From an uncultured virus (IMG/VR IMGVR_UViG_3300031758_000011) (taxonomy: Duplodnaviria > Heunggongvirae > Uroviricota > Caudoviricetes): a stretch of 20,000 nt of DNA. The translations under genes were made by a program, and so were the position numbers. Positions 1,173 to 18,269 of the stretch are shown here, piece by piece. The stretch spans positions 106,524-126,523 of the IMG/VR virus record IMGVR_UViG_3300031758_000011. One strand, written 5' to 3'. The notes beneath the pieces were generated by a model that was not told where the DNA came from, ran no database searches, and was given only the letters and a program-made list of their open reading frames with translations. Numbering within the stretch: the first letter of the stretch is position 1; every line of letters begins with the position of its first letter.

Positions 1173-1204
1173 CTTGACAAATAGAAAAAAAGTTTGTACA
1201 TTTG
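1173..1204 (+). promoter_or_regulatory. Bacteroidota-type primary-sigma promoter (-33/-7) driving the leader peptide and tRNA operon
   Basis: CTTG(1173-1176)-N20-TACATTTG(1197-1204); the same spacing recurs at six other sites in the window. Confidence 0.75.
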
Positions 1205-1252: not shown

Positions 1253-1348
1253 ATGAGAACAATTAACATACATATGATTTCGATTAATAATTGGAGACGC
1301 AATAGTTTCCATAACGGTCAAGGTATGTTAAATAACATCATAGAATAG
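1253..1348 (+). CDS. putative attenuator leader peptide MRTINIHMISINNWRRNSFHNGQGMLNNIIE (31 aa)
   Basis: ATG 1253 to TAG 1346-1348, followed by TAA; A-rich upstream; lies between a promoter and a terminator; codons match the anticodons of the downstream tRNA array. Confidence 0.8.
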   Translation: MRTINIHMISINNWRRNSFHNGQGMLNNIIE

Positions 1349-1387
1349 TAAAACATTTTATGAAGTAATCAACAAAAAGCCTTGACC
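1316..1387 (+). promoter_or_regulatory. antiterminator pairing of the attenuator
   Basis: GGTCAAGGT (1316-1324) pairs with GCCTTGACC (1379-1387), 8 WC + 1 GU, sequestering the terminator 5' arm and part of its loop. Confidence 0.75.
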
Positions 1388-1406
1388 ACAAATCAAGGCT
1401 TTTTTT
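1374..1406 (+). terminator. intrinsic terminator (attenuator)
   Basis: AAAAAGCCTTGA-CCACAAA-TCAAGGC followed by T7. Confidence 0.9.
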
Positions 1407-2259: not shown

Positions 2260-2332
2260 GGTGGTTATGGTGTAACGGTTAACATGATAGATTGTGATTC
2301 TATTGATACCAGTTCGATTCTGGTTAATCACC
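2260..2332 (+). tRNA. tRNA-His(GTG) with encoded G-1
   Basis: GTGGTTA/TAATCAC acceptor; ATAGA-TTGTGAT-TCTAT anticodon arm; ACCAG-TTCGATT-CTGGT T arm; C73. Confidence 0.93.
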
Positions 2333-2342
2333 CTTGAACTGT

Positions 2343-2360
2343 AAGTTCTTTGACATGTTG
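2343..2360 (+). promoter_or_regulatory. boxA-like (rrn-type Nus antitermination) element
   Basis: AAGTTCTTTGACATGTTG resembles rrn boxA (E. coli GCTCTTTAACA; GTTCTTTGA form in other phyla); located in a tRNA spacer. Confidence 0.6.
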
Positions 2361-2372
2361 GTAAATTAATAC

Positions 2373-2443
2373 ACAAGTATAGTTCAGTGGTAGAATAGCG
2401 GTCTCCAAAACCGTTGACGGGAGTTCGAGTCTCTCTACTTGTG
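2373..2443 (+). tRNA. tRNA-Trp(CCA)
   Basis: ACAAGTA/TACTTGT acceptor; GCGGT-CTCCAAA-ACCGT; GGGAG-TTCGAGT-CTCTC. Confidence 0.93.
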
Positions 2444-2475
2444 CAATTAACTGAATATTAGTTAATTATAAATAC

Positions 2476-2562
2476 GGAGAGGTAAGCAGAGTTGGCCTAA
2501 CTGCAACCGCCTTGAAAGCGGTAGGCCCTAGAGGTGTGTGGGTTCGAGTCCCACCCTCTCCG
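2476..2562 (+). tRNA. tRNA-Ser(TGA)
   Basis: GGAGAGG/CCTCTCC acceptor; ACCGC-CTTGAAA-GCGGT; long variable arm; G73. Confidence 0.93.
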
Positions 2563-2632
2563 CTAAAATTTAATTTTATGAAAAAAGAATTTGATATGTT
2601 GTAAGGTCTGCTATTCACAGACTCACAACATT

Positions 2633-2821
2633 ATGAGTAAAAACGTAAACAGAGCAAAACTGAACAAAGCACAAAATGGTAGACAATACCGAATCATGTT
2701 AATCAATGATTTCTACCCAATTTATTGGGATGAAGGTATTCGTTTCTATGGAAACAAAATGAGTTATCAAGTTAGAATGTATAAAACTTGGAAACACTAC
2801 CGAAAAACACAGTGGAAGTAA
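2633..2821 (+). CDS. small basic protein embedded in the tRNA array
   Basis: Likely start ATG 2633: MSKNVNRAK...YKTWKHYRKTQWK (62 aa); flanked by RNA hairpins. Confidence 0.6.
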   Translation: MSKNVNRAKLNKAQNGRQYRIMLINDFYPIYWDEGIRFYGNKMSYQVRMYKTWKHYRKTQWK

Positions 2822-2832
2822 TTCCACAATTT

Positions 2833-2904
2833 TGTCTAATGGTGAAATGGTTATCACGCTGCTCTGATACGGCAGTATTTCCAGTTCGAGTCTGGGTTAG
2901 ACAA
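2833..2904 (+). tRNA. tRNA-Ile(GAT)
   Basis: TGTCTAA/TTAGACA acceptor; CTGCT-CTGATAC-GGCAG; TCCAG-TTCGAGT-CTGGG; A73. Confidence 0.88.
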
Positions 2905-2910
2905 CAAGAT

Positions 2911-2987
2911 GCAGATGTATCCCCTCAAGCTTATATCTTGTAGAAAGGGTAGTTGGTCACATGTGAGTTCGAATCTCACCTTCTGTA
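2911..2987 (+). tRNA. atypical tRNA-like RNA, anticodon TAT (Ile), no canonical D arm
   Basis: GCAGATG/CTTCTGT acceptor (1 mismatch); GTGAG-TTCGAAT-CTCAC T arm; CAAG-CTTATAT-CTTG anticodon arm; extra CCCT/AGGG helix; D-loop-like AGTTGGT lies 3' of the anticodon arm. Confidence 0.65.
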
Positions 2988-2997
2988 CAAAATATAT

Positions 2998-3071
2998 TCT
3001 CCTTTAGCTCAGTAGGTTAGAGCAACGCACTGTTAATGCGTGGGTCCTAGGTTCGAATCCTAGAGGGAGAG
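2998..3071 (+). tRNA. tRNA-Asn(GTT)
   Basis: TCTCCTT/AGGGAGA acceptor; ACGCA-CTGTTAA-TGCGT; CTAGG-TTCGAAT-CCTAG; G73. Confidence 0.95.
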
Positions 3072-3081
3072 CAACAAATAT

Positions 3082-3183
3082 TCACCCATAGCTCAGTGGT
3101 AGAGCAAACGGCTAGGTATGATAAGTAAGTTCATACAAGGAGTGTTAACCGTTAGGTCCTAGGTTCGAATCCTAGTGGGTGAG
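3082..3183 (+). tRNA. tRNA-Asn(GTT) with a 30-nt insertion (putative intron) in the anticodon loop
   Basis: TCACCCA/TGGGTGA acceptor, perfect D and T arms; AACGG-CT[3114-3143 insert]GTTAA-CCGTT. Confidence 0.85.
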
Positions 3184-3189
3184 CAAAAT

Positions 3190-3259
3190 GCCGACACTTA
3201 GTGGAAAAGGACCGTCCCTCATATGGATGGTTAAGTGAGTTCGAACCTCACAGTCGGTA
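3190..3259 (+). tRNA. compact atypical tRNA with CAT anticodon (Met or Ile2)
   Basis: GCCGAC/GTCGGT acceptor plus A-A mismatch; CTT-AGTGGAA-AAG D arm; extended CCGTCC-CTCATAT-GGATGG; GTGAG-TTCGAAC-CTCAC. Confidence 0.7.
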
Positions 3260-3265
3260 CAACAT

Positions 3266-3338
3266 GCACTTATCGTTCAACTGGATAGGACAATCGCCTA
3301 CGAAGCGATAAATCGGAGTTCGAATCTCTGTAGGTGTA
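3266..3338 (+). tRNA. tRNA-Arg(ACG)
   Basis: GCACTTA/TAGGTGT acceptor; ATCGC-CTACGAA-GCGAT; A20-containing D loop. Confidence 0.93.
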
Positions 3339-3347
3339 CAACAATCT

Positions 3348-3420
3348 GCCCCTATCGTTCAACTGGATAGGACATGGCCCTTCTAAGGCCAGTATCGGAG
3401 TTCGAATCTCTGTGGGGGTA
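3348..3420 (+). tRNA. tRNA-Arg(TCT)
   Basis: GCCCCTA/TGGGGGT acceptor; TGGCC-CTTCTAA-GGCCA; D and T arms identical to those of Arg(ACG). Confidence 0.93.
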
Positions 3421-3426
3421 CAAAAT

Positions 3427-3511
3427 GGAGAGTAATCCTTGATGGCGATAGGGTCCGACTGCTAATCGTGACGTACCTTTTTGGTATGAGGTTCGATTCC
3501 TCTGCTCTCCG
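3427..3511 (+). tRNA. tRNA-Ser(GCT) with an 8/4 acceptor/T fold and a bulged anticodon stem
   Basis: GGAGAGTA/TGCTCTCC (8 bp); GAGG-TTCGATT-CCTC (4 bp); TCCGA-CTGCTAA-TCG(T)GA; GTACC/GGTAT variable arm; G73. Confidence 0.8.
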
Positions 3512-4559: not shown

Positions 4560-5456
4560 ATGAAAAAAAATGTTTTAAATATCGAAATAACTAGACCATC
4601 ACAAAAATTGTTTGTGATGCGTGGTATTCCTGGGGCTGGAAAATCAACAATGGCGAAATCACTAATGGGTGAAGGGATAATTCATTCAACAGATGATTTA
4701 ATTGAAGCTACTGGTGACTACAGAGGTTTCTTTGCTAAAATGATAGAGTCTGGAGACTTTAAAGATTTGTCTAGAATGCACTCTAAGAACTTATCTAACG
4801 CAATCAAATCTATGAAAGATGGTATTAGTCCAGTTGTAATAGATAACACGAATATCAAAGCCAATGAGGCTAAAGCATATGTTGTTGCAGCGTTGGAAAT
4901 GGGATTTGATGATAACAACATACAAATACATGATGTTGGCACTCGTAACTTGACTGCTGAGCAATTAGCTGAGTCAAATACACATGGAGTTCCATTAGAT
5001 AAAATAAAAATGATGATGGATTCACATAAATCTGTTGGGCCATTGACTGTTAAAAAAATAGTTGAATCTAAAGATATGTATAAACAATCAGATGTGTTAT
5101 ATTCTTGTGTTTTGTTGGATGGACAATCCAAAGGTACGTTATTGGATAAACTTGGTATATGGATACCAAAAGATTGGACTGTGATAACACATCATATGAC
5201 AATAAATTTGGGTGAACTTAAAGATAAAACTGATTTAGGTAAAGAAGTTACATTGACAGTTGAAGCGTTAGGTCTTTCAGATAAAGCTATGGCTGTAAGA
5301 GTTAGCGGTTATCCATCAAAAAATGAAATTCCACATATAACTATTGCGATTAACCCAGATGGTGGTAAACCAGTTATGAGCAATCAAATAACAAAATGGC
5401 AAGACATTAAATCATTTATGATAAGTGGTATTGTCACTGAAATAAAAAAACAATGA
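4560..5456 (+). CDS. polynucleotide kinase-like P-loop domain fused to a 2H phosphoesterase (RNA end-healing enzyme)
   Basis: Walker A GIPGAGKST, HSTDD, VVIDNTN and THGVP motifs of AAA_33/N4BP2-like kinases; C-terminal HHMTI...PHITI 2H motifs. Confidence 0.85.
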   Translation: MKKNVLNIEITRPSQKLFVMRGIPGAGKSTMAKSLMGEGIIHSTDDLIEATGDYRGFFAKMIESGDFKDLSRMHSKNLSNAIKSMKDGISPVVIDNTNIKANEAKAYVVAALEMGFDDNNIQIHDVGTRNLTAEQLAESNTHGVPLDKIKMMMDSHKSVGPLTVKKIVESKDMYKQSDVLYSCVLLDGQSKGTLLDKLGIWIPKDWTVITHHMTINLGELKDKTDLGKEVTLTVEALGLSDKAMAVRVSGYPSKNEIPHITIAINPDGGKPVMSNQITKWQDIKSFMISGIVTEIKKQ

Positions 5457-6753: not shown

Positions 6754-7878
6754 ATGTTAGCTATACAAAAATATTTAAGAACACACGGTTTAGAAAAAAC
6801 AATCAAAGACTTTTCTTTAAAAACTAGAGAGTATGAACACAAAATACTCTTGAAGTATGACCAATTAGTGTCACCAACACTTATGTCATTGCCAGAGATG
6901 CAAGATTGTCGTGGAATCATCCTTGAAAAAGGTACTTGGAACGTAATGTCTTTGGCGTTTAGAAAATTCTTCAACTCTGAAGAAGGTAACGCTGCTAAAA
7001 TAGATTGGAATACTGCACAAGTACTTGAAAAATTGGATGGTACTATGATACAAGTGTATTATGATTGGCACGACATGACATGGTATGCTGGTACTACTGG
7101 TACTGCAAACGGTGAAGGTGAAGTTAACAACAAAAATGGTACTAAATTTAACGAATTGTTTTGGGATACTGTTAACAACAAATACACATTCAATGCATGT
7201 TTGTTAAATTATGATTATATCTATGTGTTTGAGTTAACTACACCATATAACATAGTAGTAAAACCACATGGTGAATCATCAGCGACTTTGTTGGCTGTTA
7301 GAAACAGAAAAACACTTGTTGAGTTGTCTGGGAGAGACTTGGAAATGACTGCGGTATCATTGGATATACCATTGGTAAAATCTTTTGATTTAAACGCAAA
7401 AAATGTTGGTCACTTGTTGAAAACATTTGAAGGTATGCCATGGTCTGAAGAAGGTTATGTTGTACGTGATGGTAATGACAATCGTGTTAAAGTGAAAAAT
7501 CCAGCATATGTTGCGGTACACCACTTGAAAGGTAAAACTGCTGAACACAACATATTAACTATTGTAAAAACTAACGAGATAGAAGAATTTGCTGCTACTT
7601 TCCCAGAAAGAACAGAAGAATTAAATCGTCTTAAAGAGTCTTACGATGCGTTGGTTGCAAAATTGAATGTTGTATGGGATGAATTAAAGTTGCGTAAACC
7701 AAAAAACGTAACAAAACCAGAACAAAAAAAGTTTGCTGCTGCTGTGTTTGAAGTTTGTGAGAAATATGATTTAAAAAACTTTACTGGGTTGTATTTTGGG
7801 TTGAAAGATTACAAAATAGCATCAGTTGAAGAATATATGTTTAACTATGACGATAAAACGTTATATAAAATGTTGTAA
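6754..7878 (+). CDS. T4 Rnl1-like RNA ligase
   Basis: DCRGIIL, FRKFFN, motif I EKLDGT, VFELT, EEGYV, VKVKNPAY. Confidence 0.9.
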   Translation: MLAIQKYLRTHGLEKTIKDFSLKTREYEHKILLKYDQLVSPTLMSLPEMQDCRGIILEKGTWNVMSLAFRKFFNSEEGNAAKIDWNTAQVLEKLDGTMIQVYYDWHDMTWYAGTTGTANGEGEVNNKNGTKFNELFWDTVNNKYTFNACLLNYDYIYVFELTTPYNIVVKPHGESSATLLAVRNRKTLVELSGRDLEMTAVSLDIPLVKSFDLNAKNVGHLLKTFEGMPWSEEGYVVRDGNDNRVKVKNPAYVAVHHLKGKTAEHNILTIVKTNEIEEFAATFPERTEELNRLKESYDALVAKLNVVWDELKLRKPKNVTKPEQKKFAAAVFEVCEKYDLKNFTGLYFGLKDYKIASVEEYMFNYDDKTLYKML

Positions 7879-11593: not shown

Positions 11594-11965
11594 ATGAATA
11601 AAAATAAACGATTAATCAAGTTCCCGTCTATTGAACAATTTAGAACAGTTGTTTCTAATGTCAACAGACATTTCAACTTTGTTGGTTTGGATGAAAATGG
11701 TGAGGCGATTTATGACCCAACATTACCAAAACCAACAATTACGTTCAAAGGTGCTATAAAATTACATGGTACCAATGCTGGTGTGTCTTTTAACGCACTA
11801 AGCGGTATGTGGGCTCAATCTCGTGAGAATATTATCACACCAGCACCTTCAAAATTAATAGAAATTGAGTTTGAAGATGGTTCAAAACAATTATTTGATG
11901 AAAATGCGATTATTAATGGTAAAGTAATTAATGATTATAAAATAGGTGAGATTATTGTTTTATAG
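11594..11965 (+). CDS. Rnl2-family RNA ligase, N-terminal fragment with a 40-aa appended tail
   Basis: KFPSIEQF, motif I KLHGTN, QSRENIITP; ligase-like sequence ends near 11842. Confidence 0.85.
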   Translation: MNKNKRLIKFPSIEQFRTVVSNVNRHFNFVGLDENGEAIYDPTLPKPTITFKGAIKLHGTNAGVSFNALSGMWAQSRENIITPAPSKLIEIEFEDGSKQLFDENAIINGKVINDYKIGEIIVL

Positions 11966-12782
11966 CATACCAATTTTTATATTTGTAAAAATCTTTATTG
12001 GTTAATATAGTAATAATTCGTTTATCAGTAATATTTTCATAAAGTTTGATGTTGTTTCTTTTTGAATTATATAATTCAGTATATGGTAATTTATGTTCCT
12101 TACAAAATTTTCTTAAATTTATTGTTACTACATAAATTAATTCATTGTTGTTGTTATATATGTGGATAATTTCAGCCTCTTTTTGGTAATTTGTTTTATC
12201 TTTTTTAGGTTGTTTTAATTTGTCTCTAGTAGACATTGTTTCACCATCTTTAATAACGTCCAAACGTTCTTTATATTTTTTAGCTGCTAATTGATGGATA
12301 TTTAACCCATCAGATGTGATAGTGTTTCTTTTTGTCTCATCACCTTTTCTAGCGGCTAAATTATATAGATTTTGACCATTATTGTTAATAGTTGTTTTCA
12401 TAGTATTAACTTTTTTTGTTATTGCATTTTTGCGTGATTCTGGGTTGTGTTTTTTACCAAGAAAACCGTAAATAAAACCAGTTGTTGTTACGTTTGATTT
12501 ATTATAAAATTTATCATTTTTAGCAACATTGAATTTAGCATGTAAATGCGACTCAAATAATAAAGCTTCATTTCTAGAATTAAAAACTCTAACTATAACA
12601 TATTTGTAATTGTGTGTATTTAATTTTTGGTCGTTAATAAATTCTTTGTCAGAGCTAGAACTAAAATAACTCACACCTAAATCATATTTAGGTTCTATTT
12701 TTGATGTTCTAGAACCATAGTAATGTTTTTTATTTAGTTTATTAGTAATTCTATAAACATAATGGTAATTTTGTTTTTTCAT
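11952..12782 (-). CDS. GIY-YIG (Seg-like) homing endonuclease
   Basis: YVYRITNKLNKKHYYGSR...YFSSS...EALLFE...FYN; the only convincing minus-strand gene; interrupts the Rnl2 gene. Confidence 0.88.
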   Translation of the reverse strand: MKKQNYHYVYRITNKLNKKHYYGSRTSKIEPKYDLGVSYFSSSSDKEFINDQKLNTHNYKYVIVRVFNSRNEALLFESHLHAKFNVAKNDKFYNKSNVTTTGFIYGFLGKKHNPESRKNAITKKVNTMKTTINNNGQNLYNLAARKGDETKRNTITSDGLNIHQLAAKKYKERLDVIKDGETMSTRDKLKQPKKDKTNYQKEAEIIHIYNNNNELIYVVTINLRKFCKEHKLPYTELYNSKRNNIKLYENITDKRIITILTNKDFYKYKNWYAIKQ

Positions 12783-12820
12783 AATGCTGGTTTATCGTTT
12801 TTTAATAAATATCTATAAAA

Positions 12821-12852
12821 TTTGGAAAAGTTAAAAAAATGTCGTACATTTG
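12821..12852 (+). promoter_or_regulatory. Bacteroidota-type promoter that re-drives the downstream Rnl2 half
   Basis: TTTG-N20-TACATTTG; divergent from a minus-strand TATTTATT at 12804-12811. Confidence 0.75.
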
Positions 12853-12865
12853 TAAAAAATAAAAA

Positions 12866-13126
12866 ATGGAAAAGTTAGTTTTTGATTATACATATTGTTC
12901 CGAACCAGAGTGTTGGGAGTGGAATATACCATTTGAATATGAATCTAAAGAGAAATTCATACTTGATGTTTTAGAGAATCCTATGATTTTAGATGAACTA
13001 GGTATAACATCCGTATATGTATGGCAAATAGTGGAAAAAACTATATTTGAAGAAGATTACGTCAAAAATGTAGATGAATACGTATTCACTTTAGATGAAT
13101 GGTTTGAAAAAAATAAAAAAATATAA
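12866..13126 (+). CDS. hypothetical acidic protein between the Rnl2 halves
   Basis: 86-aa ORF directly after the promoter. Confidence 0.6.
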   Translation: MEKLVFDYTYCSEPECWEWNIPFEYESKEKFILDVLENPMILDELGITSVYVWQIVEKTIFEEDYVKNVDEYVFTLDEWFEKNKKI

Positions 13127-13134
13127 ACATAAAA

Positions 13135-13971
13135 ATGGAAAAGAAAATAAAAAATATTAGAGAAATTAAAACATCTGATAACGCTGGATTTGCATTTTTT
13201 GTGCATTCACATAAAGAAATTTTTGAAGCTATGATTAATGCTGTGTTGTTAAACAATGGTTTAGACGGTGATAAAAATACTGTAACAATCTACGGTGAAT
13301 GGGCTGGTGGTAATATTCAAAAAGGTGTTGGTGTTTGCAATTTACCTAAATCTTTCTTTATCTTTGGTGTTAAAATCACACCACATACTGAAACTGAAGA
13401 AGAGTTAAAAGCTAATCCAGCATATTGGGTTGATTACTCTTATTTAAGAGCACCAGAGCAGAATATTTACAATATTGACGATTACCCTACATATTCAATC
13501 GATATTGATTTTAACATGCCACAATTGGTACAAAATCAGTTGTCTGAGTTGACTATCAAAGTTGAAGAAGAATGTCCAGTAGCAAAAGCTTTTGGTTACT
13601 CTGGAATTGGTGAAGGTATTGTATGGACTGCTGATTTTAAAGGTGTTGTTCATCGTTTCAAGGTAAAGGGCGAACGCCACTCTAGTTCTAAAGTAAAAAC
13701 ACTTGCAGCTGTTGATGTTGAGAAATTAAATTCTATTAAAGAATTTGTTGATTATGCAGTATCTGAAAGTCGTTTTAACCAAGCGTTAGAAAACATTTTC
13801 CCAAACAACGAACCTATTGATGTTAAGAAAATGGGTGACGTTATCAGATGGGTTGTTAATGACGTTATCAAAGAAGAAATGGATACAATGGTAGAGAACC
13901 AATTGGAACCAAAAGAAATAAATAAATACATTTCATCTAAAGTAAGAGAAATGTTCTTTAAAATGGCTTAA
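13135..13971 (+). CDS. Rnl2-family RNA ligase, C-terminal fragment with a 13-aa appended head
   Basis: DNAGF, IYGEWAG, FFIFGV, GEGIVW, FKVKG (motifs III-V); lacks motif I. Confidence 0.87.
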   Translation: MEKKIKNIREIKTSDNAGFAFFVHSHKEIFEAMINAVLLNNGLDGDKNTVTIYGEWAGGNIQKGVGVCNLPKSFFIFGVKITPHTETEEELKANPAYWVDYSYLRAPEQNIYNIDDYPTYSIDIDFNMPQLVQNQLSELTIKVEEECPVAKAFGYSGIGEGIVWTADFKGVVHRFKVKGERHSSSKVKTLAAVDVEKLNSIKEFVDYAVSESRFNQALENIFPNNEPIDVKKMGDVIRWVVNDVIKEEMDTMVENQLEPKEINKYISSKVREMFFKMA

Positions 13972-14674: not shown

Positions 14675-15982
14675 ATGATAGTAAAAGAGAACGGTTTAAG
14701 ATACGCAAAACTGATACATGTATCAGTTGATAATGGTTTGACCAGCCAAAGTAATAAAGTTTATATTATGGAAGAATTATCAGATGGCCGTATCAAATGT
14801 GAATATGGTCGTGTTGGCAAGTCTTTAACAACTGAATATAAACCTAGTTCAAAATGGGATAGTGTGTTGAAACAAAAACTATCAAAAACAAAAGGTTATA
14901 CAGATGTAACTGATTTGTTGGCTGAACCAGTTGTGGATGAATCAAAACCAGTTGATAATAAAGTTGCAAATATCAAAGATGAGATTGTGCGTAAATTGGT
15001 TGATGAATTGATGTCATTTGCCAACAAATCAATCCAACGTAACTATAAGGTAACGCAAGAAGCTGTATCGGAACAACAAGTTACCGCTGCACAAGAGATT
15101 ATCACTAACATTAGTGGATTGATTGCTATTGGTGTAGATATCAAACATATCAATGATATGTTATTGAAACTTTATACAATTATCCCTAGAAGAATGGATA
15201 ACGTAAAAGACCATTTGTTTAGAGAGATTAGTAATGATGTTAGTTTGACTAACGCACAAAGATTGATTGATAACGAACAATCAGCGTTGGATACAATGGC
15301 TGGTCAAGTTGAGTTGATTAAACAACAAAGAGAAGCTGCTAAGAAAGCTGCTGAGGCTGAAGCTGAAGGTAAAAAAGAAGAAGTATCTGAAGTTACTATC
15401 TTAGACCAAATGGGATTATCTATTGAGGTTGAAAATGATACTGAAACGCTTGAACTTATCAAAAAATTGATGGGTCCAAATGTGAATCAAATGAAACGTG
15501 TGTTCAAGGTTGTTAACAACAAAACACAAAAAATATTTGATAAACACATGGATAAAGTTGAAGTTAAGAAACGTAGACTATACTGGCATGGGTCAAGAAA
15601 TGAGAACTGGTTTAACATTTTACAAACTGGGTTACTTATCAGACCATCTGGTGCGGTACATACTGGGTCAATGTTTGGTGATGGTATCTACTTTGCTGAC
15701 AAAGCACAAAAATCTATTGGTTACACATCGTTAAGAGGTTCTTATTGGGCTCATGGTGGTGATAACAAAGCGTTTTTGGCATTGTTTGATGTGCATTTGG
15801 GTAAACAAAAAGAAATATTGCACCATGACTCAAGCTGTTATAAGTTATCTAAGAAAGTGTTAGATAATGAAGGATTTGATAGTGTGTTTGCAAAAGGTGG
15901 CGCTGACCTAAGAAATAACGAATATATAGTATATAACTCAGCACAATGTACTGTATCACATTTAATTGAAATAGGAAATTAA
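14675..15982 (+). CDS. PARP-family ADP-ribosyltransferase (WGR, helical regulatory and catalytic domains)
   Basis: EYGRVG (WGR); LYTIIPR (regulatory); YWHGSR, GSMFGDGIYFAD, KSIGY, NNEYIVY (H-Y-E triad). Confidence 0.92.
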   Translation: MIVKENGLRYAKLIHVSVDNGLTSQSNKVYIMEELSDGRIKCEYGRVGKSLTTEYKPSSKWDSVLKQKLSKTKGYTDVTDLLAEPVVDESKPVDNKVANIKDEIVRKLVDELMSFANKSIQRNYKVTQEAVSEQQVTAAQEIITNISGLIAIGVDIKHINDMLLKLYTIIPRRMDNVKDHLFREISNDVSLTNAQRLIDNEQSALDTMAGQVELIKQQREAAKKAAEAEAEGKKEEVSEVTILDQMGLSIEVENDTETLELIKKLMGPNVNQMKRVFKVVNNKTQKIFDKHMDKVEVKKRRLYWHGSRNENWFNILQTGLLIRPSGAVHTGSMFGDGIYFADKAQKSIGYTSLRGSYWAHGGDNKAFLALFDVHLGKQKEILHHDSSCYKLSKKVLDNEGFDSVFAKGGADLRNNEYIVYNSAQCTVSHLIEIGN

Positions 15983-16695
15983 TGGAAAAGATATTAAAAA
16001 CTGGATATGAATGGTGTTTAGATGCAAATGTTAGAATATTAGACATTTCATCATGGGACACATCTATGGCATTTTACGAAGAATCGTATTATGAAGAAAA
16101 AATTGATGTGCAAGAGTTTTACAGACGTTTAGGGTTATGTAAAGTTAAAGCTGATTCAACACCACGTAAGAGTGAAATGTACTTAGAACGTAGAATGTAT
16201 GGGTTGGTTCCGTATAACATGTCCCCGATTCAACAAGGAATCCAATTTGGTCACGCTGTCGTTGATTATGGTAGAACTGTTGAAGGGTTAAAACCACATC
16301 AACAAATATATAACAAATGGGCTGATAAAGATAAAACATTTATTATTCTTAACGGTGGTACAACAAACAACAACCCAGAAAGATTGGGAACTTTGAATAG
16401 ACACATGCAAACTATGCGTGAAGCTGGTGTGTTGTTGCAAGAGTTTCATGAACCAGATTTGGGTGACCAATTAACAGCGTTTGTTTTCTTAGTTGATGAA
16501 AGGGTGTTTAACAGAACGTTATATCCAGACTTTGTACCAGAAACGTTACCATGGAGTAGACACAAGCCATCAGAGAAAGCTTTATCTCAATTGGAAGAGA
16601 AAAATGCTAAGAATTATAAACAATGGGAAGAAAAAATTGGTGGACCAGTTAATGCGTTCCTAAGAGAATATTTAAGACCATTGAAATTAGCTTAA
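15982..16695 (+). CDS. Pth2-like peptidyl-tRNA hydrolase fold protein with an N-terminal extension
   Basis: MYGLV...QGIQFGHA...W...KTFIIL...FHEPDLGDQLTA resembles PTH2-superfamily motifs. Confidence 0.6.
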   Translation: MEKILKTGYEWCLDANVRILDISSWDTSMAFYEESYYEEKIDVQEFYRRLGLCKVKADSTPRKSEMYLERRMYGLVPYNMSPIQQGIQFGHAVVDYGRTVEGLKPHQQIYNKWADKDKTFIILNGGTTNNNPERLGTLNRHMQTMREAGVLLQEFHEPDLGDQLTAFVFLVDERVFNRTLYPDFVPETLPWSRHKPSEKALSQLEEKNAKNYKQWEEKIGGPVNAFLREYLRPLKLA

Positions 16696-17227: not shown

Positions 17228-17800
17228 ATGGAAGATTTTGAGAAAGAACAAGAAATTACTAGGTATTTAGATAAATATTATCACGTAAAAGAAGGTGTCT
17301 TTATAATCAAATATGATGACACTCAAGAATGGGGTTTTAATTTATTACAATATCTAGTTAAAATATTTAACCATGAAGTAGACTTTACTCAAGAAGTAAT
17401 CAAAAAATGGTATTTTTCAAAAGGTTATGATGAAAACGCATATAAGCTATCACTTGGAACTAAAAGGATAAATGCTGTATGGTCAGAAGAAAGAATAACT
17501 GATTTACAACGATATGGTATCATGGATGCCGAAGCTGAACTTATCAAATTATTAAGTGATGAGATAGCTAAAGAGATTGATGCACAAATACTTAAAGATT
17601 TAAGAGGTCAAATTAAAAAGAAAGATGAATTTTTTGAGTTATTGGAATGTGTTGGTTTGGAACCAACACAAACAATCTATAATCCAATGAATTTTTCACC
17701 ACAAAAAGGATTTATAACCACAAGTTATGAACGAAGAGAAAATGCAAGGAAGAATAACATTATCTGGAACTATTGGGTTCGAGCCAGAGGACCGAACTAA
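17228..17800 (+). CDS. protein containing a T4 gp23-like major capsid segment
   Basis: KRINAVWSEERITDLQRYGIMDAEAELIKLLSDEIAKEIDAQILKDL resembles gp23 LKA.YS.ELAQDL...G.DA.AEL..IL..EI..EI.RE. Confidence 0.65.
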   Translation: MEDFEKEQEITRYLDKYYHVKEGVFIIKYDDTQEWGFNLLQYLVKIFNHEVDFTQEVIKKWYFSKGYDENAYKLSLGTKRINAVWSEERITDLQRYGIMDAEAELIKLLSDEIAKEIDAQILKDLRGQIKKKDEFFELLECVGLEPTQTIYNPMNFSPQKGFITTSYERRENARKNNIIWNYWVRARGPN

Positions 17801-18269
17801 GAAACATTCTAACCAATCTTCTTGGAAGAAGATTGCTATGGTATTTTTTGATGGTGACGTTGCTGAATATTATGCATGGTTCATCAAGAAAAGATACAAT
17901 CTTATATTAAACAAACCGCTACGTGGTGCTCACATTTCATTTATCAACGATAGTATGAAAGATTTATCACAAAACGGTGTGTTGTCAGCAGAAGAAGTTG
18001 AAGCTAAATGGGAAGAAGTTAAGAAAAAATGGGATGGTAAAAAAATTGATATAGTCTTAGACTTAGACCCTAGAACCAACTCAGAACATTGGTGGTTAAA
18101 CATTCCACATGAAGAAAGAGAACAACTCCAATCAATTAGAGATGAATTAGGTTTGGGTAGACCATATTTCGGAATGCACATGTCAATTGGGTATGCAAAT
18201 GAGAAAAACATTCACCATTCATCATATATTCACGATTTAATTAAAAAAGGTTTCATAAAATTTGCATAA
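17742..18269 (+). CDS. 2H phosphoesterase-like protein
   Basis: Two HxS motifs, GAHISFI and GMHMSIG; likely start ATG 17742. Confidence 0.65.
   Translation: MQGRITLSGTIGFEPEDRTKKHSNQSSWKKIAMVFFDGDVAEYYAWFIKKRYNLILNKPLRGAHISFINDSMKDLSQNGVLSAEEVEAKWEEVKKKWDGKKIDIVLDLDPRTNSEHWWLNIPHEEREQLQSIRDELGLGRPYFGMHMSIGYANEKNIHHSSYIHDLIKKGFIKFA

Follow-up and report, generated by a model that had tools for sequence, protein, structure and literature searches.

The window, the 20,000-nucleotide stretch analysed here, forms the end of a 126.5-kb virus record (G000; 30% G+C) that encodes a tail sheath, a baseplate, gp32, RNR, a tmRNA and a CCA-adding enzyme. A second record (G004) is 99.96% identical over 16 kb, extends about 65 kb further, contains 34 tRNA matches and is rated 24% complete. 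This extension and this completeness indicate that the phage is probably a jumbo phage, of which roughly half is covered here. The window contains a block of tRNA genes (Table 1) preceded by a TAnnTTTG box, which we take to be a Bacteroidota-type promoter. The same box lies upstream of the leader in L033, L034, L040 and L167, and these boxes suggest a Bacteroidota host. The block is also preceded by a leader ORF and an intrinsic-terminator-like hairpin, the 5' arm of which can alternatively pair with the leader in a fold predicted to be more stable than the terminator (-22.5 vs -13.6 kcal/mol). The leader recurs in L033, L034, L040 and L167, and the arrangement of promoter, leader and terminator is conserved in four relatives; in L033, the leader and the terminator arm have changed together.

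Other features of the block and its surroundings were also observed. The 5' half of a tRNA-His ends at the anticodon loop (1588-1621) and is followed by an HNH gene (1679-2257) and then by a complete, different His gene (2261-2333); the half gene and the HNH gene look like a homing endonuclease inserted at the anticodon loop. Two tRNA-like genes were overlooked by ARAGORN at default settings, i.e., an atypical one with a TAT-like loop (2908-2991) and a CAT tRNA (3189-3262). The DNA of a small basic ORF in the block (2633-2821) is about 92% identical to L033, L034 and L018, and the ORF has no family match. Elsewhere in the record, the tRNA at G000:C1:103137-103208 has a CTA anticodon though code 11 fits, and TAG ends 10 of 116 ORFs. 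Besides, the near-identical record G004 contains more long tRNA-like genes with inserts or split halves (L184:12611-12738, 13628-13763 and 15550-16200).

The gene at 3082-3183 was matched by the Rfam tRNA model at 58.4 bits, with an anticodon loop of 35 nt against the 5 expected. ARAGORN overlooked this gene at default settings and reported a 30-nt intron when introns were allowed. Excision of either 3113-3142 or 3114-3143 from the 102-nt sequence gives the same 72-nt tRNA-Asn(GTT), in which the acceptor (7/7), D (4/4), anticodon (5/5) and T (5/5) stems are fully paired, the loop reads CTGTTAA and the discriminator is G. An ATT call made by ARAGORN for this gene (34/35) was ruled out, as the empty alleles described below read GTT. 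Folding of the insert gave, as the minimum-energy structure, the hairpin GTATGA/TCATAC, which pairs 3116-3121 with 3131-3136 (z = -4.15; none of 200 shuffles was equally stable). No target-site duplication was found at the insert apart from one ambiguous T. The intact Asn gene ends 10 bases upstream. The gene is a canonical tRNA-Asn with a cleanly inserted 30-nt element, and a preliminary description made from the sequence was correct in proposing a full cloverleaf in which removal restores CT-GTT-AA, the GTATGA/TCATAC hairpin in the insert and an intact Asn gene beside it.

Table 1. Features of the window that bear on the insert-containing tRNA-Asn gene (positions of the window)
Feature	Position	Strand	Support
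TAnnTTTG box upstream of the tRNA block	1197..1204	+	
31-codon leader ORF with 7 Asn and 6 Ile codons; antiterminator strand near 1314-1325	1253..1348	+	
Intrinsic-terminator-like hairpin and T run ahead of the tRNA block	1374..1406	+	-13.6 kcal/mol
tRNA block: His, Trp, Ser, Ile, atypical tRNA-like gene, Asn, Asn with insert, CAT tRNA, Arg, Arg, Ser	2261..3511	+	
Intact tRNA-Asn(GTT), anticodon stem unlike that of the insert-bearing gene	2998..3071	+	ARAGORN and Rfam
5' exon of tRNA-Asn: acceptor 5' strand, D arm, anticodon stem 5' strand, C32	3082..3112	+	
30-nt insert: 3-nt lead, 21-nt hairpin, 6-nt purine tail	3113..3142 (32/33)	+	Register from homology with the L110 copy
Alternative insert limits, 33/34 register, identical product	3114-3143	+	
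6-bp hairpin with 9-nt loop, covarying in the family	3116..3136	+	
3' exon: U33, GUU anticodon, A37-A38, T arm, acceptor 3' strand, discriminator G	3143..3183	+	
P-loop kinase fused to 2H cyclic phosphodiesterase (candidate end-healing enzyme)	4560..5456	+	AAA_33 E 1.2e-8, tRNA_lig_CPD E 8e-6
T4 Rnl1-family RNA ligase, intact (candidate sealing enzyme)	6754..7878	+	
Rnl2-family ligase gene in two pieces (11594-11965 and 13135-13971)	11594..13971	+	
Homing endonuclease gene within the split Rnl2	11952-12782	reverse	

The window insert belongs to a family of five distinct inserts (30-32 nt) present in six tRNA-Asn bodies and in one CAU tRNA of a distant phage. The six distinct tRNA-Asn bodies came from pattern scans of viral and metagenome contigs and carry four distinct inserts (30, 31, 31 and 32 nt). 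Differences in insert length are confined to the A-rich tail, which is 6-8 nt long. The window, L018 and L044 share an identical insert, and their exons differ from each other at 4-22 of 72 positions. Clean excision gives a tRNA-Asn(GTT) in all six Asn bodies and a tRNA(CAT) in the CAU body (L110), and is exact in 7/7. The CTGTTAA loop and all five anticodon pairs are retained in each of the six Asn bodies, with exons that differ at 4-29 of 72 positions, and compensatory changes occur in the acceptor, anticodon and T stems. The weaker bodies are those of L017 and L042, which have a discriminator U, and only 5/7 acceptor pairs are formed in L042. Across the five insert sequences, the hairpin is paired in 30/30 cells and both sides have changed at two of the six pairs; this level of covariation was equalled by 21 of 500 shuffles, and slid registers were 3-60% paired. 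The support that these alignments would lend to covariation of the hairpin is modest, i.e., two events in five related sequences. An intact Asn gene is found near five of the six insert loci, and the sixth, L040, has little flank. No second or source copy of the element was detected in G000, G001, G002, G004, G005 or G006. Several tRNAs of the clade (L018, L040, L017, L042, L033 and L034) have a T-T mismatch closing the T stem, whether they carry the insert or not.

Empty alleles were found for both host tRNAs. L033 and L034 match the spliced form of L018 (93.6% over 78 nt), and L184, in record G004, matches the spliced form of L110 (93.3% over 75 nt). A search with the kinase protein (Table 1) led to seven loci: one belongs to the same phage, four stop short of the Asn genes, and the two others, from relatives, have two and three intact Asn genes, with the insert absent. 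Among these intact genes is the empty allele of L018. Two to three Asn genes are thus normal in insert-free members of the clade, and the intact neighbour alone does not prove that the insert-bearing gene is a dormant spare, as had been suggested. The conserved insert, the compensatory changes and the empty alleles point to an intron-like element rather than to a recent inactivating insertion, the outcome that the preliminary description had tied to a lack of conservation. The insert is real, conserved and mobile, and its splicing is likely.

The CAU copy, L110, came from an insert-blind scan that gave at least 120 loci, of which at least 101 passed the tRNA geometry filter and at least 72 were distinct. 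Its insert is homologous to those of the Asn bodies, with 23 of 26 letters identical to L040, while the next-best unrelated insert among the matches listed (72 distinct) shares 15 letters and none of 5000 shuffles reached 23. The phage itself is distant, its RNR small subunit being 48% identical. The TAT, CTT and CTA registers are formally possible for L110, but the intact CAT allele of the same body in G004 pins the insert to 34/35 and leaves no other register open; an assignment as Lys(CTT) at 35/36 was dropped on the same ground. Placed at 34/35, the L110 insert consists of 3 + 21 + 6 nt, the same as the window insert at 32/33, and both inserts are preceded by C and start with TA. Since the CAU copy has a single register, 32/33 (3113-3142) is favoured for the window; an insertion at 33/34, with 32/33 as the alternative, had been proposed before, and this homology makes the alternative the likelier of the two. 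The comparison of the two copies indicates that the element has moved between two different tRNAs. Besides, the insert splits the anticodon of L110, and thus this gene would be able to decode only if spliced. Just upstream of its insert-bearing CAT tRNA, the L110 phage carries a GOLLD RNA and also a tRNA-Glu whose D arm has a 41-nt insert (L189:3684-4488); the GOLLD RNA is not located inside a tRNA and was rejected as a tRNA insert.

Viral tRNAs often contain short loop inserts, many of which fit TAT or GTA at 36-37/38; others are separate families. Eight loci (L048, L072, L085, L086, L108, L118, L120 and L124) have T-loop-hairpin inserts of 44-50 nt, mostly fitting 35/36. Other short hairpin inserts fit 34/35 in Asn and Lys tRNAs (L015/L162, L068, L021 and L023), and those of L068 and L162 look mutually related. 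In the annotated phage collection, 36 records gave partial tRNA matches, none of which spans 80% of the gene. Eight matches in GTDB genomes included no bacterial copy of the insert: five were archaeal tRNA inserts unlike that of the window, and three, in Ureaplasma, span the neighbouring intact gene. The Ureaplasma loops show that bacterial tRNA-Asn genes contain the same short sequence as the spliced junction. Further matches were rejected as chance (four of six in a first 16-mer scan), as neighbouring-gene artefacts (seven of 18 in a later pattern scan), as part of a promoter-like stretch without the hairpin (four of eight in a context-free scan) or as lying outside tRNAs (two of six in another context-free scan). 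L205, also outside a tRNA, has a perfect stem and scores 29 bits with model R1; it was picked by pattern from the whole collection and is probably due to chance. L041, one of seven matches of the metagenome scan, resembles an archaeal gene with several introns and was dismissed as unrelated.

The closest parallel is found in the Lak megaphages, for which passages of Devoto et al. 2019 (PMC6784885) describe unexplained, highly conserved 'enigmatic' tRNA introns with empty alleles, and an identical insert across genomes though the exons differ. Going by these passages, the Lak introns and the window family both occur in large phages of Bacteroidota hosts (the host of the window phage being inferred), are located in the anticodon loop, restore this loop upon clean removal, are identical across genomes and have empty alleles, and neither has a known splicing machinery. 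An intact isoacceptor coexists with the intron in Lak as well (Lak A1 Tyr), and by eye, unscored, both elements start with a short lead of U/A, a hairpin and an A-rich stretch. On the other hand, Lak-type introns span about 80-140 nt; the Lak inserts in rows of Table S6 (PMC6784885) are 79-114 nt long, lie after the anticodon and contain a T-arm-like or mini-tRNA module, whereas the window family has 30-32 nt, consists of a hairpin only and is found at positions 32/33 and 34/35. Model R1, which is short and of low power, gave no match on a Lak A1 stretch with three introns (L191; E up to 5). The window insert thus behaves as a Lak-type phage tRNA intron outside the Lak sequence family. The preliminary description, which saw only group I introns as bacterial precedent, has to be revised in this respect, as short phage tRNA introns had been reported in Lak phages in the passages mentioned (PMC6784885). 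The literature, mostly outside subscription journals, gave no description of a 30-32 nt insert family and no explanation of phage tRNA introns, and parts of the main text of PMC7162821, PMC12619734, PMC12990946 and bioRxiv 2021.08.26.457843 contain nothing on such inserts. Phage tRNA introns are hence already known from Lak, and the hairpin-only build, the covariation and the move between two tRNAs are new.

Archaeal and eukaryotic introns processed by EndA/TSEN are also short, hairpin-like and found at non-canonical loop positions, and the Thermoproteales have transposing intron families in which the same element occurs in different tRNAs. The window family shares all of these traits, but has no bulge-helix-bulge (BHB), no EndA match and a bacterial host. 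With eight registers tried for each of six family members, the central helix of a BHB reached at most two of four pairs, in agreement with the earlier remark that no canonical BHB is present. Most TAT-type 37/38 inserts fail this test too, which makes a ruler-type enzyme compatible with the absence of a BHB. No EndA or RtcB (Pfam) was detected among 125 G000 proteins (124 of 127 predicted ORFs and one substituted ORF) and 91 of 96 ORFs of the G004 extension, a set covering roughly half of the genome. Four further insert-bearing phage records, two of which carry unrelated inserts, were likewise without EndA (0/4) and RtcB (0/4), and all had Rnl1 (4/4). The 3' junctions differ, since the Asn copies end in GAG before U33 and the CAU copy in GTT before A35; together with the tail of 6-8 nt, this makes a single cutting rule hard to state.

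In known heal-and-seal systems, T4 Pnk/Rnl1 rejoins a single nick, and the healing and sealing by fungal Trl1 relies on TSEN for cutting. The window phage has a comparable gene set, consisting of the kinase-2H, Rnl1, three HAD-type proteins (HAD phosphatases) and RlaP, and also the CCA-adding enzyme, but the nuclease for two cuts is missing, and jumbo phages often have repair genes of this kind whether or not they carry introns. The kinase-2H also matches the polynucleotide kinase phrog_505 (E 1.9e-9), and a PDB search gave a weak match to T4 Pnk (E 0.037). Of the proteins first proposed for healing and sealing, the kinase-2H, with its two domain matches, and the intact Rnl1 are borne out, but Rnl2 is split here; its pieces are separated by a homing endonuclease gene and another ORF. 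The Rnl2 gene is contiguous in L167 and L034. The kinase-2H gene is also present in relatives whose Asn genes are insert-free, and so the repair kinase does not point to splicing as had been thought; no homologue of it was found in the L110 record (73% complete). Parts of PMC7824862 describe repair genes as widespread in jumbo phages, where tRNAs and repair enzymes counter the cleavage of tRNAs by the host. Considering this wide occurrence and the kinase of the insert-free relatives, the repair genes make splicing possible but are no evidence for it. An ORF at 17727-18269 of the window has two HxS motifs and is, by eye, a second 2H phosphoesterase; its sole match is a PHROG of unknown function. 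Among RNA data, 20 runs each shared at most 0.13 of words, and the four examined consisted of contigs only, with a depth near nil over 3110-3152 and no joint skipping the insert.

Based on these results, we propose, with a probability of about one half, that the insert is a mobile minimal intron, excised by a nuclease and sealed by a phage repair ligase. It probably belongs to a small group of mobile introns that consist of a hairpin only and reside in tRNAs of large phages, and the phages bearing this family probably infect Bacteroidota. In the proposed scheme, the insert-bearing gene would be transcribed with the tRNA block, under a leader-peptide attenuator that would be read through during slow decoding of Asn, Ile and other codons. 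An endoribonuclease of the phage or the host, not EndA-like by Pfam, would make one cut between C32 and the UA-N and hairpin with which the element starts, and another where the purine tail ends. The ends would then be healed by the repair enzymes of the phage, and Rnl1 would join the exons to form a second tRNA-Asn(GUU). The element itself may spread among tandem tRNA genes by recombination and rarely insert into a new tRNA. A spliced mobile intron is favoured by the exact reversibility in 7/7 bodies, the stem-preserving change of the exons, the covariation, the empty alleles and the presence in a second tRNA with a split anticodon. The missing nuclease, the unlike 3' junctions, the intact Asn gene in 5/6 loci and the weaker bodies of L017 and L042 count against splicing, the nearby intact gene meaning that splicing is unneeded for decoding.

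The alternative that survives best, possible although in our view doubtful, is an unspliced tRNA mimic, in which the hairpin would block the ribosome while the intact tRNA body and the contiguous U33-GUU-AA loop would bind or divert a host protein that targets tRNAs, for example an anticodon nuclease. A decoy for an Asn-specific nuclease would need no such hairpin in a CAU tRNA, and there the same element splits the anticodon, whereas at 32/33 in the Asn copies the anticodon remains in one piece, as a mimic would have it. The conservation of hairpin and loop as a functional module, the coverage of decoding by an intact Asn gene in 5/6 loci and the other tRNA-like genes with long inserts in the same phage are consistent with mimicry, as is the counteraction of host tRNA cleavage by jumbo phages with tRNAs and repair enzymes, described in parts of PMC7824862. 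A mimic would also account for a splice signal and an EndA not being found, but not for a removal that is exact in all seven bodies.

A selfish or neutral DNA insert is improbable; it would put a redundant tRNA gene out of action and spread through gene conversion, perhaps because it destroys the target of a tRNA-directed homing endonuclease. A dead gene would lose the compensatory changes seen in the acceptor, anticodon and T stems and in the insert hairpin, and no second copy of the element was present in the genomes searched; the acceptor decay in L042 and the identity of the insert across mosaic bodies are nonetheless what such a spread would produce. Homing endonuclease genes are indeed frequent in these tRNA blocks, as in the window, where half of a tRNA-His directly precedes an HNH gene, and an HNH gene or its remnant lies directly upstream of the insert-bearing gene in L167 and L039; this position is found in only two of the six Asn loci, though, and HNH also precedes insert-free tRNAs in L033 and L034.

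In group I introns, the 5' exon ends in U and the intron in G. It is most improbable that the insert is a reduced group I intron, excised in trans by a ribozyme from another locus: it does, like bacterial group I tRNA introns, interrupt the anticodon loop of a bacterial-type tRNA, and at 32/33 the Asn copies do end in G, but it has no catalytic core and about a tenth of the size, its 5' exon ends in C and the CAU copy in U, and no group I or II intron scored above the Rfam cut-off in 120 kb of G000, the window and the G004 extension.

Returning to the spliced mobile intron, we tentatively extend it to a wider proposal, which we hold with less than even confidence, i.e., that phages of Bacteroidota may run protein-dependent tRNA splicing in the bacterial cell, in which a non-EndA nuclease would read the C-UA-N-hairpin of a mobile 30-nt intron anywhere in the anticodon loop and a repair ligase would seal the exons. 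If this is true, the intron would keep a nuclease-proof reserve tRNA that is matured only when the repair enzymes are active. Spliced or not, such genes are overlooked by standard annotation or are assigned the wrong anticodon, and few substrates for asking whether splicing takes place, and by what, could be much smaller than this 30-nt element, which has both filled and empty alleles in two tRNAs. If unspliced, the element would be a defined tRNA mimic; if spliced, viruses infecting bacteria would use protein-based tRNA splicing with an undescribed nuclease.
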